This document shows positions 21,436 through 62,615 of a stretch of DNA of 64,000 bases, piece after piece. Each line of letters begins with the position of its first letter. The stretch's first letter is position 1. Source of the stretch: Hyphomicrobiales bacterium (GTDB lineage: Bacteria > Pseudomonadota > Alphaproteobacteria > Rhizobiales > Xanthobacteraceae); NCBI GenBank assembly GCA_038230475.1, contig JBBRNE010000012.1, positions 4,413 through 68,412 of the forward strand. Direction: 5' to 3'. Made by a program: the position numbers and the translations under genes. The notes below the pieces were generated by a model that worked only from the letters and a program-made list of their open reading frames with translations, was not told the DNA's origin and did no database searches.

Positions 21436-22071
21436 ATGTCCTCTCATCGCCGAATCACAGGCCGCCTCGTGATCGCAACCCACAATGCTGGCAAGCTTGC
21501 CGAGATGCGTGAACTGCTCGCGCCTTACGGCATCGATGCGGTGTCGGCGGCGGACTTGAAGATCGCCGAACCGGATGAGACGGGCAAAACTTTTCAGGCC
21601 AATGCGCGGATCAAGGCCATTGCCGCCGCGAACGCAACGCAGCTTCCGGCCTTCGCCGACGATTCCGGATTGTGTGTCGATGCACTCGATGGCGCGCCCG
21701 GAATTTATTCGGCGCGGTGGGCTGGCGAGACCAAAGATTTCAACACCGCGATGGCGCGCATCGAACGCCTGTTGCAGGAGCGCGACGCGATCGAGTCCGA
21801 GCAACGCAAGGCGCATTTCGTCTCGGCGTTATGCGTCGCGTGGCCGGACGGACATCTTGAAGACGTCGAGGCGCGCGTCGATGGCACGCTGATTTGGCCG
21901 CCGCGCGGCGATGCAGGCTTCGGTTACGATCCGGCGTTTCTTCCCGACGGACATGCGCGTACCTTCGGCGAAATGACGAGCCTCGAAAAGCACGGTCTGC
22001 CGCCGTTAGGATTGGGATTGTCGCATCGCGCAAAAGCCTTCGTGAAGCTGGCGGAGATGTGCCTGAAATGA
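21436..22071 (+). CDS. rdgB: Non-canonical purine NTP pyrophosphatase
   Basis: [37 protein letters not shown]. Confidence 0.95.
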
Positions 22072-22154
22072 GCGCGCACATTTCAGATGTTGCTTTTCAC
22101 CTCTCCCGCGCGCGGGGGAGGCCGGCGCAATTGCGCCGGGAGGGGGCGCGATGA
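22068..22154 (+). CDS. Putative 28-aa ORF linking rdgB and hemW by two ATGA overlaps
   Basis: ATG 22068 overlaps the rdgB TGA; TGA 22152-22154 overlaps the hemW ATG 22151. Mostly encoded by a GC-rich palindromic element. Confidence 0.35.
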
Positions 22155-22196
22155 CGGCCCCCCTCCCCACCCCGCCCCCGCTTACGGGGGAGGGAG
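22100..22196. repeat. Multi-hairpin G/C-tract palindromic element (family C) overlapping the hemW 5' end
   Basis: Hairpins cctctccc..gggggagg, perfect ccggcgcaattgcgccgg, gaggggg..ccccctc and cccccg-ctta-cggggg. Encodes PLPTPPPLTGEG in HemW. Confidence 0.8.
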
Positions 22197-23338
22197 ATAA
22201 GGCCTTCGGCGTCTACGTCCACTGGCCGTTTTGCCTTTCGAAATGCCCATATTGCGATTTCAATTCCCACGTCCGCCATCAAGCCGTCGACGAGGACCGT
22301 TTCGCGGGCGCATTCGAGCGTGAGATCGCAACCACTGCGGCACGTATACCTCAACGTGAAGTGACGTCGATTTTTCTCGGCGGCGGCACGCCGTCATTGA
22401 TGAAGCCTGAAACCGTCGGCAAAATTTTGGACTCCATCGGCAAGCATTGGAGCGTTGCGAAGGACGTCGAGGTCACGCTGGAAGCCAATCCGACCAGCGT
22501 CGAAGCCACCCGCTTCAAAGGCTATCGCGCAGCGGGCGTCAATCGTGTGTCGCTCGGCGTGCAGGCGCTCGATGATGCGTCTCTCAAATCGCTCGGAAGA
22601 CTTCACACGGCGCGCGAAGCGCTCGATGCGGTGGCGATAGCGCGTAGCGCCTTCGACCGTTATTCGTTCGATCTGATTTACGCGCGGCCCGACCAGACAC
22701 CGCAGATGTGGGCGCAAGAACTCAAACTCGCGATTTCCGAAGCTGCCGAACATCTGTCGCTGTATCAACTCACGATTGAACCCGAGACGCCATTTTACGG
22801 ATTGCATGCCGCAGGCAAGCTCGCGATTCCCGATGAAGCTGTTGCGCGCGAGTTGTACGACGCGACGCAGGATGTTTGCGCGGCTCAAGGTTTGCCGTCA
22901 TACGAGATTTCCAATCACGCGCGACCGGGTGCCGAGTGCAAACACAATCTGGTTTATTGGCGCGGGCAGGAATATGCCGGCATCGGTCCCGGCGCGCATG
23001 GACGGATTGACATCGATGGCGCGCGTCACGCCATTGCGACTGAAAAGCGTCCTGAAACATGGCTGATGCGGGTTGAGGCACAAGGCCACGGCGTCACAAC
23101 GGATGAACTGCTCAACAGCGAAGAACGTGCGGATGAATATTTGCTGATGGGATTGCGTCTTGCGGAAGGCATCGACCCGAAGCGCTACGAAATGCTGTCG
23201 GGTCGCGCGCTCGATCCAAGGCGTATTGCGATTCTGACCGATGAAGGCGCGATCGTCGTCGATGCCAATGGCCGCGTGCGCGTAACGGCGGAGGGATTTC
23301 CGGTGCTCGACGCGGTGGTCGCAGATTTGGCGGCGTGA
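22151..23338 (+). CDS. hemW: Radical SAM heme chaperone HemW
   Basis: YVHWPFCLSKCPYCDFNSH (CxxxCxxC), FLGGGTPS, TLEANP, HLSLYQLTIE, YEISNHA; follows rdgB as usual. Confidence 0.93.
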   Translation: MTAPLPTPPPLTGEGDKAFGVYVHWPFCLSKCPYCDFNSHVRHQAVDEDRFAGAFEREIATTAARIPQREVTSIFLGGGTPSLMKPETVGKILDSIGKHWSVAKDVEVTLEANPTSVEATRFKGYRAAGVNRVSLGVQALDDASLKSLGRLHTAREALDAVAIARSAFDRYSFDLIYARPDQTPQMWAQELKLAISEAAEHLSLYQLTIEPETPFYGLHAAGKLAIPDEAVARELYDATQDVCAAQGLPSYEISNHARPGAECKHNLVYWRGQEYAGIGPGAHGRIDIDGARHAIATEKRPETWLMRVEAQGHGVTTDELLNSEERADEYLLMGLRLAEGIDPKRYEMLSGRALDPRRIAILTDEGAIVVDANGRVRVTAEGFPVLDAVVADLAA

Positions 23339-56434: not shown

Positions 56435-57463
56435 TTACCCGCGGCGGCGGGAGTTGACCGCGATCGCCAGCAGCGCACGCTGTGCGATGACTTCCGCCAT
56501 TGCCGATTGCTTGCGCATGTCGGCGGCGGCTTCGGCGAGTTGCGCGATATTGCGCAGCAGTCTTTCCGTGCTCGAATTTCGCAACGCCGTCTCGACCAGC
56601 GGCTTGCGTGAAAAATGCAGACGCGGAAATCCGCGCTCGGCAACTTCGCCCTCGCTTTGACCCTCATCAATAGAAAGCCTTGCCTTGTGCAGTTGCGCCG
56701 CGTGGCGTTGCGCGGTCATCACAATGAGGCTTGGATAAATTCCGGCGGCCATCGCTTTTGAGAAAGCCTTTTCGACTTCCGCCGGCTTGCCGGCGAATGC
56801 GCTGTCGATAATCGGGTCGAGCGCGAGGCCCGACGCATCGGTGACGATGGCGACGATGTCGTCCAGCGTGATTTCGGGTTTGCCGTGCGCGTAAAGCGCG
56901 AGTTTGCGGATTTCATTGCGCGACGCCTGACGGTCCCCACCAAGCAACGATGTCAGTGCCGTGCGCGCGTCCGCAGATATTTTCAGATGAGAGGCGCGTA
57001 GTTCGTCGTCGATCAGGCGTTCGAGATCCCTCACACCGTCGGCGTAGCACGCAATCGCGACGGCAGACTTGGCGCGCTCGCAGGCCTTGCGAAGCGGCGC
57101 GTCGGGACGCAATTCGCCCGCCTCGATCACGACCCGGCAATCTTTTGGCGACATTTCGGCGAGCGTATCGATACCCGCGGCGAAACTCTTTCCGCCTGCA
57201 CGAATGCGAATCGCGCGCCGTCCACCGAACAACGGCACCGTCATGGCTTCATCGACGAGGCGAGAAGGCTCAGCGGCAAGTTCGTCGCCGTCGAGTCTCA
57301 CAAGTGAAAACGGATCGTTGGGATCATCGACGGCCGACGCCAGCAGCGCGTCGGCGCGTTCACGCACGAGACCTGCATCCGGACCGTAGAGAAGGATGAT
57401 GGGACGTGCCGGATCGGGCCGGGCCAGAAACGCGTCGATGTCTCGTCCGCGAAGGGCGACCAC
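56435..57463 (-). CDS. holA: DNA polymerase III delta subunit
   Basis: LLYGPDAGLVRE, VPLFGGRR, ACYAD, SRNEIRKLALY; in the leuS-lptE-holA order. Confidence 0.93.
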   Translation of the reverse strand: MVALRGRDIDAFLARPDPARPIILLYGPDAGLVRERADALLASAVDDPNDPFSLVRLDGDELAAEPSRLVDEAMTVPLFGGRRAIRIRAGGKSFAAGIDTLAEMSPKDCRVVIEAGELRPDAPLRKACERAKSAVAIACYADGVRDLERLIDDELRASHLKISADARTALTSLLGGDRQASRNEIRKLALYAHGKPEITLDDIVAIVTDASGLALDPIIDSAFAGKPAEVEKAFSKAMAAGIYPSLIVMTAQRHAAQLHKARLSIDEGQSEGEVAERGFPRLHFSRKPLVETALRNSSTERLLRNIAQLAEAAADMRKQSAMAEVIAQRALLAIAVNSRRRG

Positions 57464-57464
57464 G

Positions 57465-57539
57465 CTAGTGTCCCGAATCCAAAGTTCGCTTCATGTTGCC
57501 GCGCATTCTTTCCAGCGAACTTTGGATTCAAAGGGACAC
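57465..57539. repeat. Bulged-hairpin MITE-like element E1
   Basis: GTGTCCC+GAATCCAAAGTTCGCT (57468-90) pairs with AGCGAACTTTGGATTC-aaa-GGGACAC (57514-39); CTAG at the left end. Confidence 0.8.
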
Positions 57540-57554
57540 GGGCGAATTATAATT

Positions 57555-57630
57555 CTCGTGTGGCTTTGTTCAAACATTCTCTTGGCGGGCAAGCAGCACA
57601 AACAAAGATAATGTTTGAACGCCACACGAG
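57555..57630. repeat. Bulged-hairpin MITE-like element E2 (inverted relative to E1)
   Basis: CTCGTGTGGC-ttt-GTTCAAACATT (57555-78) pairs with AATGTTTGAAC+GCCACACGAG (57610-30). Confidence 0.8.
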
Positions 57631-57633
57631 CGG

Positions 57634-58188
57634 TTACATCCCCGTCGCGAAATACGACGCCATGCGCTGGTTGATATTCTCCGCGATCACATTCGCGGCG
57701 CGATCTTCGGCATCGCGCAACGCACGAGAGCGGGCGAAGCGCTGGGTCTGTCCGGGAATATCGTATGACACGCGCGAGAAGGTATTGCCGGTGAGGATCG
57801 ATTTGTCGGACGTGTTGTCCTTGAGCTCATACGTCACATTGATGCCATAGGTCTCAGCGTCAGCCAGCGCCGTGCTCGGATCGACGATGACCGTCAAGCG
57901 GCTGGTGGTCAGCTTCATCAGAAGCCGATGCGTGGGCGGACCGCCGACGGCCGCACCGTACATCTGGAACATCAGCGCGTTGCGAATGCCTAAGCCAACG
58001 CGTGCTTCGCGTGAGCCGTTCGGCAAATTCAGCGGCGGAACTTCGACACCGAGCAGCTTGTCGCGCAACCCCGGCGAGCCGTTCGGCCCGCGTTCGGCGT
58101 ACATCGGCTGAAAGCAGCCAGCCGTCACGGCGGCCAGTGATGCCACAGCAATCAGCCGGACAGCTATGCGCTTATCAAACCACAACAT
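57634..58188 (-). CDS. lptE: LPS assembly lipoprotein LptE
   Basis: Lipobox VTAGC followed by FQPMY; RVSYD..RFAR.RA..DAE.RAA; located between leuS and holA. Confidence 0.85.
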
Positions 58189-60805
58189 TCACGATCCTCT
58201 GCGGAACGACGATGACCTTTTTGGGGGCCTTCCCGTCCAGCGTCGATTTTACCGTATCGAGTGTTAAAACGGCAGCCTCTATTTCCTCGTTCGAGGCATT
58301 TCGAGCCACCGTGACATCTCCGCGCTTCTTGCCGTTAACCTGCACGGGGAGCGTAATTGTGTCATCGAGCAGCAAACCGGGTTCGATTTTCGGCCACTGT
58401 GCCTCGGAAACCAACCCCTTGTGGCCGAGCACTTGCCAGCATTCTTCCGCCAGATGCGGCATCATCGGGGAAATCACGACCGCGAGCATGTCAAAGGCTT
58501 CGCGCGCGGCTGCCGCAACGACCGCGTCTTTTTCAAGCGGTTTGGCTGGATCGTCGACAACTTCAGCGAGCGCGCTGACGAACGTGTAAATTTTTGCGAT
58601 GCCGGTGTTGAAGCGCAGCCGCTCGATGGCATTCGAGACGTCACTCAATGTGCGATGAGCGACCATGCGCAGCGCTTTTGCGTCGGCGTGATCGGGTGCG
58701 ATAACAGTGTTCGGGTTCGGCAGATGAGGTGCTGCGGCGTTCACCAGCCGCCACACGCGCTGAACGAAACGGCTGGCACCCTGCACGCCTTCTTCGCTCC
58801 AGATCACGTCGCGGTCAGGAGGAGAATCGGAAAGCATAAACCAGCGTGCGGTATCGGCGCCGTAGGTACCGATGATGTCATCTGGATCGACGGTGTTGCG
58901 CTTTGACTTCGACATCTTTTCTATGGAGCCGATTTCGACGATTTGGCCTCCATCAAGAAGCGTGGCCTGCCGCTTGTCGCCGGCCACATCGATTTTGATT
59001 TCCGCAGGCGACGCGAAAGTACCGTCCTTCTTCTTGTAAGTCTCATGCACCACCATGCCCTGCGTGAACATGCCGGCGAACGGCTCGTCCATGCCGACAT
59101 GACCGGTAACTTTCATCGCGCGCGTAAAGAAGCGCGAATACAGCAGATGTAAAATCGCGTGCTCGACGCCGCCGATATATTGATCGACCGGCATCATGCG
59201 ATTGACGACATTGGGCGTCGTCGGTGCCTTTTCATTCCACGGATCGGTGAAGCGTGCGAAATACCATGATGAGTCGACGAAGGTGTCCATCGTGTCGGTT
59301 TCGCGCTGCGCCTTGCCGCCGCATTTCGGACAGGCGACGTGTTTCCAAGTCGGATGATGGTCGAGCGCGTTGCCGGGTTTGTCGAACGACACGTCGTCCG
59401 GCAGCACGACGGGAAGATCTTTATCCGGCACAGGCACCACGTCGCATGTCGGACAGTGAATGACTGGAATCGGACAACCCCAATAGCGCTGACGCGAGAT
59501 ACCCCAGTCGCGCAGGCGGAAGTTGACCTGCCGCTGCGCGACAGCGCGATTTCCCAACGTCGTTGCTTCAAGCCGCTTTGCGACTTCCTCCTTGGCTTGC
59601 ACAATCGTCATGCCGTCCAGAAAGCGTGAATTGATCATCGTGCCGTCGCCGTCATAGGCGATGTCAGTAATGACGAATGTTTTAGGATCGGTGTCGGGCG
59701 GGCAAACAACAGGCGTATTGCCGAGTTTGTATTTGTTGACGAAATCCAGATCGCGCTGATCGTGCGCTGGACAGCCGAAGATCGCGCCCGTGCCGTATTC
59801 CATCAAAACGAAGTTCGCGACGTAAATCGGAAGCATCCATGACGGGTCGAGCGGATGCGCGGCCTTGATGCCGGTGTCGAAACCCATTTTCTCGGCGGTG
59901 TCGATGTCAGCTTGCGCTGTGCCGCGATGTTTCGTCTCGGCGATAAAATCGGAGAGTTTCGGATTTTTCTTTGCAGCCTCCGTCGCCAGCGGATGATCGG
60001 GCGCAATGGCAACGAACTTCGCGCCGAACAACGTATCCGGCCGTGTGGTGAAAACTTCGATCTCACTCTCATTGTTCGGCGTGGATTTTGCGTCGAGTGC
60101 AAAGCGAATCAGCAAACCTTCTGAACGGCCGATCCAATTTCTTTGCATGAGCCGGACTTTGTCGGGCCAGCGATCCAGCGTATCGAGCGCGTCCAAAAGT
60201 TCTTGCGAGTATTTCGTGATCTTGAAGACCCACTGATTCATCTCGCGCTGCTCGACGACAGCACCGGAACGCCAGCCCTTGCCGTCGATCACCTGCTCGT
60301 TGGCGAGCACGGTCATATCGACCGGATCCCAGTTGATCTTGCGCTTTTCGCGCTCGGCCAAACCCACACCGAGAAAGTCGAGAAACATCTTTTGCTGATG
60401 TTTGTAATAACTCGGATCGCAGGTCGCGAATTCGCGCGACCAGTCGAGCGACAGCCCCATGGTCTGGAGCTGCTTCTTCATCGTGGCGATATTTTCGTAG
60501 GTCCATTTTTTCGGCGCGACCTTGCGTTCGATCGCGGCATTCTCGGCGGGCAAACCGAACGCATCCCATCCCATCGGGTGCAAGACATTGTAGCCCTTGG
60601 CACGCATGGTGCGCGCGACAACGTCGCCCATCGTGTAGTTGCGGACGTGACCCATATGGATTCGCCCCGACGGATAGGGGAACATCTCGAGGACGTAGTA
60701 TTTCTCGCGGGGGTCGTCGTTTTTGGTCGCGAAAATCGCCTGCTGATCCCACAGGCGTTGCCATCGCGGCTCGGTTTCGCGGGCGTTATAGCGTTCAATG
60801 CTCAT
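58175..60805 (-). CDS. leuS: Leucine--tRNA ligase
   Basis: [36 protein letters not shown]. Confidence 0.98.
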
Positions 60806-60923
60806 GGTAAGGCGTCGTCTGCCGAGAAAACAGGGTGAATTGTAGCGGCAGACTAGCCACAAAAGGCGGCGTTGGGTCAACGCCTTGGGCGTGATTCGGG
60901 GTGCATGGACGGTTGGCTTAAGT

Positions 60924-62615
60924 TCAGCTTGCCAGCGAGACGTTGTGATCGCTGACCCGGACCAGCGCATGTTCGACCACGGTGTTGCGGCCGCGGCGTT
61001 TTGCAGCGTAGAGCGCAGCGTCCGCCGCTTCGATCAAATCATCCTGCGGCTGGGCTTCGCTCGGGGAGATCGATGCGACGCCGACGCTCACCGTAATTCG
61101 CTTCGCGGTGCTCATGCTATGCGGAATGGCGAGACCTTCGACACGCGCGCGAATCTGCTCGCCGATTTGCATCGCATTTGCTGCGTCGCTGTTCGGCAAC
61201 AGCAGACAGAATTCCTCGCCGCCGTAACGCGCCGCAAATCCTGACGCTTCGTTGGCAATTGCCGCGAGCGTTTCGCCGATGCGGCTCAGACACACGTCAC
61301 CCTCGGGATGACCGTAGGTGTCGTTAAAGAGCTTGAAATGATCGACGTCGATCATCAGCAGCGACATTGGCGTTTCTGTTTGTAGCGCCTTCATCCATTC
61401 GAATTCAAGACGGCCTTGCAGCCCACGGCGATTCGCAAGTCCCGAAATCATATCGACGGATGCAATCACCGTGAGCCTGTCATTGGCTGCGACCATCTCG
61501 CGTTCGCGCTCTGCAAGTTGTGACGCCATAACGTTGAACGCTCGTGTCAGAGGCGCGAATTCCTGCGGCATCCCGGTATTCGAGGCGCGAACGGAAAGAT
61601 CGCCGCGGCCAAAGCGGTTGGCCGTCGCGGTCATAGTCCGGATCGGGCGGATGATAAGACGTTCGCCGGCGAACCACGCACCGATCAACGCCAGAAGTCC
61701 GACCAGGCCGAGCTGTACATAGGCCGTCATAATGTCGCGATCGATATCGCCGAGCATTGTCGATTCGTTGATGCTCACAATCAGCCGAGCTTTGGTGCCT
61801 ATCACTCGCGCGAACGAAACGGCTTTCTTTTCACCGTCGGCCGATTCGAATGAAATCGAACCGGATTCGCGGTCGAGATTGATTTCACTGTGGGCGACGG
61901 TCTCAAGCAGCGATGTGTCCTTGAGATGGGTCCCGATCAGATTCTCATGTTCGGCTCGTGCTGCGAGAATTACGCCTTGGCTATCCACCAGCCACACGGA
62001 GACGCCGGCGCGGCTGATCCGCTCGTTCATCAGTTGCGCCATCCATTTCAAATCGATTGCTGCGATGATAACTGCCTCCGGTCCGCCATCGACGGCCGAA
62101 ACCGGGTAGCTTCCGACGAGAACCGGCTGGCTTGAGACACGGCTGAAGATGTAGTCGCTCAGGACGAATTCGTGAAATTCAAGCGCGCGTTTGAAGTAAT
62201 CGCGGTCGCCTAGATCGGTACCGACCATACCGGGCGTGGTGGAACATTGGACTTTGCCATCGGTTCCGAGAATCGAAAGATTTTTGATCCATGGCAGATC
62301 GACGCGAAGGCTCGCGCGCATGATGGCGCAGCCGCGACCCTGCTGCGATGCCGCCGAATAGATATACGCCGACGATTTCAAAACGGCTTGGACAGTTGAA
62401 ATGATCTCGCGCTGCGAATCTGCGGTATGCCGCGCCAATGCGGACAATTCGCCGGCTGCTTGCGTGACTTCCTTGGCGCGAGTGTCCTCGAGGACTCGAA
62501 CGCGATCGGCCATCAGCGGCACGACAAGAATCAGCGCGAGCAGCACCAGCCGCGCGCGAATTCCAAGAAGCGCCTTGAGTTTTGACGAGTTGCGGCCGAA
62601 ACTGACGATCGACAT
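60924..62615 (-). CDS. Membrane diguanylate cyclase (Cache-HAMP-GGEEF)
   Basis: Two TM helices flanking a Cache-like domain, [27 protein letters not shown]. Confidence 0.92.

Follow-up and report, generated by a model that had tools for sequence, protein, structure and literature searches.

The 170-bp gap that separates lptE from holA (57464-57633) in the window, i.e., the whole 64,000-nt stretch of DNA that was analysed, most probably holds one fossil copy of a non-autonomous MITE of 163-169 bp that was derived from, or mobilised by, an IS630-family IS and that inserted at CTAG (we place the probability of this reading at roughly 0.85). The copy itself is 166 bp in length (57465-57630, corresponding to C12:61877-62042 in the genome) and was matched over the full model length by both nhmmer and covariance model (CM) searches. 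Its predicted link to an IS derives from matching ends and a common target. The family comprising this twin-hairpin element is apparently new and is of an ordinary kind (IS630-derived MITE); a description of it was found nowhere in the searchable literature.

Architecture of the lptE-holA gap

The leuS, lptE, and holA genes are all encoded on the minus strand. leuS (58175-60970) is followed by lptE (57634-58188), which codes for a protein of 184 aa (Pfam LptE, PF04390; 59-86% identity to orthologues) and terminates with a TAA stop codon at 57634-57636. On the other side of the gap, holA (56435-57463) codes for DNA polymerase III delta (342 aa; Pfam PF06144) and begins with a GTG start codon that is conserved with relatives.

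The gap comprises two hairpin modules, denoted E1 (57465-57542) and E2 (57555-57630), and the AT-rich linker CGAATTATAATT (57543-57554) that joins them; a strand is not applicable to the element or to any of these parts. The inner stem of E1 is a perfect 16-bp helix (57475-57490 with 57514-57529) that closes a loop of 23 nt, and it is separated by an AAA bulge on the inner arm (57530-57532) from an outer stem of 10 bp (57465-57474 with 57533-57542), within which the inner CTAG has decayed to CGGG. The inner stem of E2 is likewise 16 bp (57568-57583 with 57605-57620), and its outer stem of 13 bp (57555-57567 with 57618-57630) carries an unpaired TTT on the 5' arm, which is the inner arm. The linker displays TATAAT on both strands and forms the core of the palindrome GAATTATAATTC located between E1 and E2 (57544-57555). 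Folding of the 186-nt gap RNA yielded -82.2 kcal/mol, as compared to -48.4 +/- 4.0 kcal/mol for shuffled sequences (z = -8.4). The first-pass annotation had described the gap as two inverted, bulged hairpins with an AAA bulge and a TATAAT palindrome between them, and every detail of this description was recovered by the fold and its coordinates. The junction was identical in an independent Logan assembly (SRR19962015), indicating that the element is not an artefact of a single assembly.

Screening of the 3.18-Mb Afipia-like assembly with BLAST and iterated nhmmer identified 12 full-length copies of the element (163-169 bp), each comprising both hairpins and the linker, and no partial copies anywhere in the assembly. 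A composite covariance model (R1) recovered the same 12 loci. A model built from a single module (R2) returned 44 matches on both strands and, among the matches listed, all fell within the 12 pairs; these accounted for all 24 modules, and no solo hairpin module was among them. Collectively, these searches bear out the earlier proposal of a structure-defined, MITE-like family. They do not bear out the proposal that the two hairpins are separate members of that family since all copies in the genome are pairs, such that the mobile entity is one bipartite unit of 166 bp.

Alignment of the first module with the reverse complement of the second revealed homologous mirror images that share a CAGC-type (TGCAGC-like) loop motif. 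The unit is thus two-fold symmetric, with the order outer arm, loop, inner arm, AT-rich linker, inner arm, loop, and outer arm. The outer arm of E1 recurs in inverted form as that of E2, such that the two constitute terminal inverted repeats, a bulge of 2-3 nt is always found on the inner arm in copies of the family, and the linker consensus AATTATAATT is a feature of the family. Taken together, the layout would comprise a left terminal repeat, a loop of ~28 nt, an inverted copy of the repeat with 2-3 extra nt, the AATTATAATT linker, and the mirror image of this arrangement for the right repeat. Since a repeat and its own inverted copy would be found on each side, each half folds into a bulged hairpin. 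The inner arms may have been inactivated as transposase substrates by the 2-3-nt insertion so that the outer ends alone would be used. If only the outer arms are uninterrupted ends of the transposase type, this would account for the movement of the pair as one entity.

RNAalifold predicted 50 pairs for the family, 36 of which exhibit compensatory changes, and covariation within a module extends to the tetranucleotides at its ends (CTAG/CTAG or CTCG/CGAG). Such strong covariation, when considered with the conserved TGCAGC-like loop motifs and the orientation bias among copies (described below), could be taken to point to selection for an RNA function rather than to selfish DNA; the twin hairpin might, for instance, be a site of processing by RNase III/E or act as a small RNA through which lptE and holA are adjusted independently. 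We regard this as improbable. G-U pairs are equally common in the sense (59) and antisense (60) directions, such that the covariation does not demonstrate selection at the RNA level and is explained equally well by a constraint on a DNA-level palindrome. Moreover, no Rfam family reached threshold, with a scan of the gap returning only sub-threshold, miRNA-like noise, and both the presence of bursts of identical copies in a family that varies from few to many copies per genome and the match between the ends of the element and IS terminal repeats argue against an RNA element.

Insertion site and IS630-family ends

Comparison of the gap with that of relatives substantiated the claim that the element was inserted into the leuS-lptE-holA operon. 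The element is absent from the lptE-holA junction of 47 of 47 other Afipia species representatives, in which the spacer is 8-14 nt in length. The three genomes that encode the closest HolA relatives in public assemblies (89, 87, and 86% identity), all of which are metagenomic, likewise have empty sites, with 8-nt spacers of AACAAGAC, CCAAAAAA, and ACCGAAAA, respectively. When flanks were compared with those of the closest relatives, the residue that does not belong to the element comprised CCG on the lptE side (57631-57633, minus strand) and C on the holA side (57464, minus strand), which we interpret as the left and right remnants of an original 8-nt spacer. The empty site can be reconstructed as TAA-CCG-CTAG-C-GTG, and precise deletion of the element would restore CCGCTAGC. 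CCG, CTAG, and C together amount to exactly 8 nt, and insertion into a CTAG within the spacer is therefore the simplest history. The element would have landed at this CTAG, duplicating either TA or the whole CTAG, and would thereby have moved the start of holA from 8 to 170 nt past the lptE stop codon.

Additional filled and empty pairs were obtained by using this genome as the source of the empty allele for copies in other genomes, and several such pairs were recovered. In the cleanest of these, two other genomes (G007 and G020) carry the element at a site where one CTAG marks the exact point of insertion in the present genome. CTAG is present at both ends of the element and only once in this empty site; old copies have decayed ends. 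Duplication of TA and duplication of CTAG are not separable from such comparisons because the ends belong to the hairpin and show covariation within it (CTCG/CGAG variants).

CTAG is present at only 0.12 of its mononucleotide expectation in the genome (1,389 sites). For at least 3 of its 12 copies, the CTAG at one end overlaps a TAG stop codon of a host gene, and many of the few available CTAG sites are a C followed by a TAG stop, such that the ends of copies often coincide with stop codons. Specificity for CTAG would thus lead the element to land on TAG stops and to split translationally coupled gene pairs, including those that involve essential genes (holA, secF, and folK). GTAC (0.26), TATA (0.35), and TTAA (0.48) were also depleted genome-wide, and TCGA, GATC, GCGC, and CGCG were enriched more than 2-fold.

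No sister strain with the insertion was detected in two exact-pattern scans of metagenome contigs, and an exact-protein look-up returned the identical Logan contig and no other carrier. Two other lptE-holA junctions, from a Tardiphaga MAG (L009:3026-3182) and an uncultured alphaproteobacterium (L010:3029-3150), harbor other insertions of ~125-155 nt, the former of which carries a repeat of the CCTCATCCTGAGGAGCGGCC... type. These insertions suggest that the lptE-holA junction has been the target of repeated, independent invasions.

Over their outermost 25 nt, both hairpins agree with the terminal repeats of IS630-family IS from related genomes at all but two or three positions (22-23 of 25). 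IS630 itself targets TA with a preference for CTAG, and IS copies identified in Afipia, G126, and G152 are flanked by CTAG. One such correspondence was observed in G126, which encodes a 1,214-bp IS630-family IS flanked by CTAG with ends of CTAGTGTCCCGAGTCATAAGTTCGC and CTAGTGTCCTGAACCAGAAGTTCGC; the outer arms of the MITE in the same genome are CTAGTGTCCCGATTCCGAAGTTCGC (22/25 with the IS end) and CTAGTGCCCTGAACCTGAAGTTCGC (23/25), with the left end of the IS pairing with E1 and the right end with E2. In the window, the outer arm of E1 (57465-57489) also matches the left terminal repeat of the G126 IS at 22 of 25 positions, and that of E2 (57607-57630) represents a divergent version of the right terminal inverted repeat. 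A second IS, of 1,184 bp, was identified in G152 with eight equal-scoring matches, two copies of which were compared and were 100% identical. It codes for a transposase of 360 aa and shares its first 15 nt with the end of the MITE, and one of its copies is inserted in the CTAG at the end of a MITE (L133:1078-1096). The transposases of G152 and G052 contain the Pfam domain DDE_3 together with HTH_32/28/29/23.

Several other IS types were considered as partners and rejected. The ends of the commonest IS630-like type in Afipia (~1,050 bp, ends CTAGAGCG...) are unlike those of the element, those of the types in G012 and G048 have only CTAGTG in common with it, and the type in G052 matches at 17 of 24 positions, to a divergent copy (C2:27364).

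Genes encoding DDE_3 transposases were identified in 16 of 48 Afipia genomes, and G152 yielded 34 matches. None was detected in the present genome or in G018, in which the element is present in high copy number, and the G126 and G152 transposases had no tblastn match in the present genome. The first-pass annotation had noted that no transposase is nearby, and this holds for the whole genome with respect to DDE_3. It had also considered the mobiliser to be unknown; the terminal inverted repeats now point to the kind of mobiliser that was probably involved, an IS630-family IS. The lack of a matching transposase suggests that the copies in this genome are immobile fossils, and the identity among them, at only 65-85%, is consistent with this status.

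The same data bear on whether the repeat could be a REP/REPIN doublet that depends on a RAYT (Y1) transposase for its mobility. An inverted doublet of hairpins is superficially similar to a REPIN. However, the element ends in CTAG rather than GTAG or CGTC, its modules are 76-80 nt rather than 20-40 nt, no Y1_Tnp gene is present in the genome, and the arms match IS630-family terminal repeats. We therefore regard a REPIN identity as effectively refuted.

Predicted effects on holA expression

Copies of the element in this genome are located at several other operon junctions (mlaE|mlaF, folB|folK, secD|secF, and a response regulator|kinase pair), often within a few nt of stop and start codons. Of the 62 copies examined, 37 are flanked by genes that run in the same direction. 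The copies at the other operon junctions lack a good promoter motif, and E2 at the present junction lacks features of a terminator, which suggests that read-through is the norm for the family and the default at this junction. By analogy with the habit of the family, transcription of holA most probably continues to come from the leuS-lptE promoter by read-through.

The first-pass annotation had raised the possibility that E2 terminates upstream transcription, and holA would in that case depend wholly on an internal promoter. E2 is a long, stable hairpin positioned directly past the lptE stop codon, as might be expected for an intrinsic terminator. However, the stem is followed by AAUUAUAAUUCG rather than a U-tract, a terminator scan returned 0 matches, and the same architecture is present in the many co-directional junctions noted above, including those inside operons. 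We consider termination at E2 to be very improbable and retain read-through as the default.

A motif resembling a sigma-70 promoter is nonetheless present in the gap. On the minus strand, a -35-like TTGAAC (57573-57568) is separated by a 16-nt spacer from a -10-like TATAAT in the linker (57551-57546), with a predicted start near 57539. This is the TTGAAC-N16-TATAAT that had been reported to point at holA; it matches the sigma-70 consensus at 10 of 12 positions and is the only promoter-like match in 57300-57800 (shuffle mean of 0.1). The TATAAT of the linker is a feature of the family. The -35 is not, with CAGAAC being the family consensus at this position and TTGAAC being specific to this copy. 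When the 62 copies were evaluated in the E2-to-E1 direction, only this one reached 10/12 and the next best reached 9/12; most display ATGTCA-18-AATTAT or TTGCGA-16-AATTAT (8/12). In the opposite direction, 2 of the 62 copies reached 10/12.

One explanation for this motif, and the core of what the first-pass annotation proposed, is exaptation, whereby the insertion broke the coupling between lptE and holA and the copy was subsequently reshaped, such that TTGAAC and TATAAT would form a working sigma-70 promoter, holA would be expressed from its own transcript starting at ~57539, and E1 would provide a 5' stabiliser and, through GGGA, a Shine-Dalgarno sequence (SD). In its favor, the motif (10/12 with a 16-nt spacer) is the sole match in the region, only 94 sites this good are present genome-wide on both strands, the copy is the sole one at 10/12 in the E2-to-E1 direction, it precedes an essential gene whose putative 8-nt coupling to lptE was lost, and the family favors the E2-to-E1 orientation between co-directional genes. 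Conversely, because TATAAT is built into the family and 3 of 124 copy-strands reach 10/12, the motif may have originated by chance. The junctions upstream of secF, folK, and mlaF are just as tight and are occupied by copies that lack the motif, which suggests that a promoter is not required, and both the SD and the very start of the transcript would be paired within a stable stem. We view exaptation as possible but on balance doubtful. The pattern at holA is suggestive of selection where a promoter would help most, and chance is possible given the built-in -10. A more specific version of this scenario, and one that we hold more tentatively still, is that selection favored paired changes in the E2 stem that turned the built-in TATAAT into the full TTGAAC-N16-TATAAT after the 8-nt coupling was severed, placing holA on its own MITE-made transcription unit with E1 as a cap-like 5' stabiliser and SD donor.

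Whichever transcript carries holA, the insertion is predicted to have altered its translation. In relatives, the holA GTG is 8 nt past the lptE stop codon with no SD in between, a spacing that suggests translational coupling. The insertion would abolish this putative coupling. In the window, the only SD-like motif before the holA GTG is GGGA (57471-57474, minus strand), which is 7 nt upstream of the GTG and within the outer stem of E1. The end of E1 had been reported to read GGGA..CTAG directly before the holA GTG, and GGGACACTAG-C-GTG was indeed found there. Since the outer end of the element is always GGGACACTAG or GGATCACTAG, a weak SD is placed 7 nt from whatever follows. A role for the E1 GGGA as the holA ribosome binding site (RBS) is plausible, although this site is a prediction and is paired in the outer stem. 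E1 has its bulge between this stem and the stable inner helix, and the GTG is one nt from the stem. The conserved GTG may thus be translated through the terminal GGGA, which would act as a weak SD that is exposed when the outer stem, here 7-9 bp, opens.

At junctions between co-directional genes, copies in the E2-to-E1 orientation (as at holA) outnumber those in the opposite orientation (26-27 versus 11; p of about 0.014-0.02). Insertion at a palindromic target should be blind to orientation, and the bias therefore points to selection on the effects of the element on expression.

Distribution and comparison with known repeats

Matches to R1 were identified in 24 of 24 Afipia genomes scanned, with 3 to >35 copies each, and in 86 of 151 genomes from the same GTDB family, representing 35 of the 52 genera that were sampled; the copies in this bacterial family number in the hundreds. 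Among other families of the order, matches were detected in 1 of 16 genomes. The exception, G025, yielded 64 matches (best E of 4.7e-24), with none in the 15 other families, and its copies may reflect horizontal spread of the element or of its IS. In G152 and G126, many copies score equally and are near-identical, and some are located within the terminal CTAG of another copy, which suggests recent bursts of transposition. Elements in G152 that are nested in each other's terminal CTAG form head-to-tail arrays (L135, G152:C1:51869-52435). In the present genome (C1:142184-143919), a copy at C1:143073-143236 is located between two ORFs of 295 and 222 aa without a Pfam match, the first of which may encode a ParA/MinD-like ATPase given its P-loop-like motif (GADKGGVGKT).

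These results provide a name and a likely mobiliser for a repeat that occupies narrow gaps within operons of Afipia, Bradyrhizobium, and related taxa and that annotators would otherwise meet as unexplained hairpins. The copy between lptE and holA represents a compact, natural test case for the expression of an essential gene behind 166 bp of strong secondary structure, and it could show whether MITEs supply promoters in alphaproteobacteria.

MITEs derived from IS630-family IS are known in other Bacteria, including RUP in Streptococcus pneumoniae and Nezha in cyanobacteria. Like these, the element described here is small and gene-less, has terminal repeats in common with IS630-family IS, targets TA, is intergenic, and varies in copy number with evidence of bursts. 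Unlike these, it has four copies of the repeat, with each terminal repeat accompanied by an inverted copy bearing a 2-3-nt insertion and the whole forming two foldback hairpins around an AT-rich linker, and it has no sequence relationship to them. The Correia/NEMIS elements of Neisseria, some copies of which create promoters and the hairpin RNA of which is processed, are similar in habit only (~100-160 bp, TA target, location in or next to operons, and co-transcription). They differ in sequence and host, and the two ends of a Correia element pair to give a single long hairpin whereas the present element forms two local hairpins. Promoter activity and processing have been shown for Correia/NEMIS, whereas here they would be hypothetical. 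The ERIC/IRU elements of enterobacteria are imperfect palindromes of ~127 bp that are found in transcribed intergenic regions of operons and affect the stability of flanking mRNA in an orientation-dependent manner, and in these respects they resemble the present element; their sequence and target are different, and we know of no partner IS for ERIC. Within the same bacterial family, Br-REP1 and Br-REP2 of Bradyrhizobium are also palindromic repeats (20-40 nt) that are located in 3'-UTRs and intergenic regions, but their consensus sequences (CCGGAATCTCGAGATTCCGG and CGAGATTCCGGG..., respectively) differ from that of the present element and lack both CTAG ends and an IS partner (PMC5082802).

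A different G/C-rich palindromic element, with arms of CCCCTCCCC and GGGGAGGG, was observed in the rdgB-hemW gap of the window (22068-22200). It has a predicted fold of -99.8 kcal/mol (z = -3.4), and its sequence is unrelated to that of the twin-hairpin MITE.
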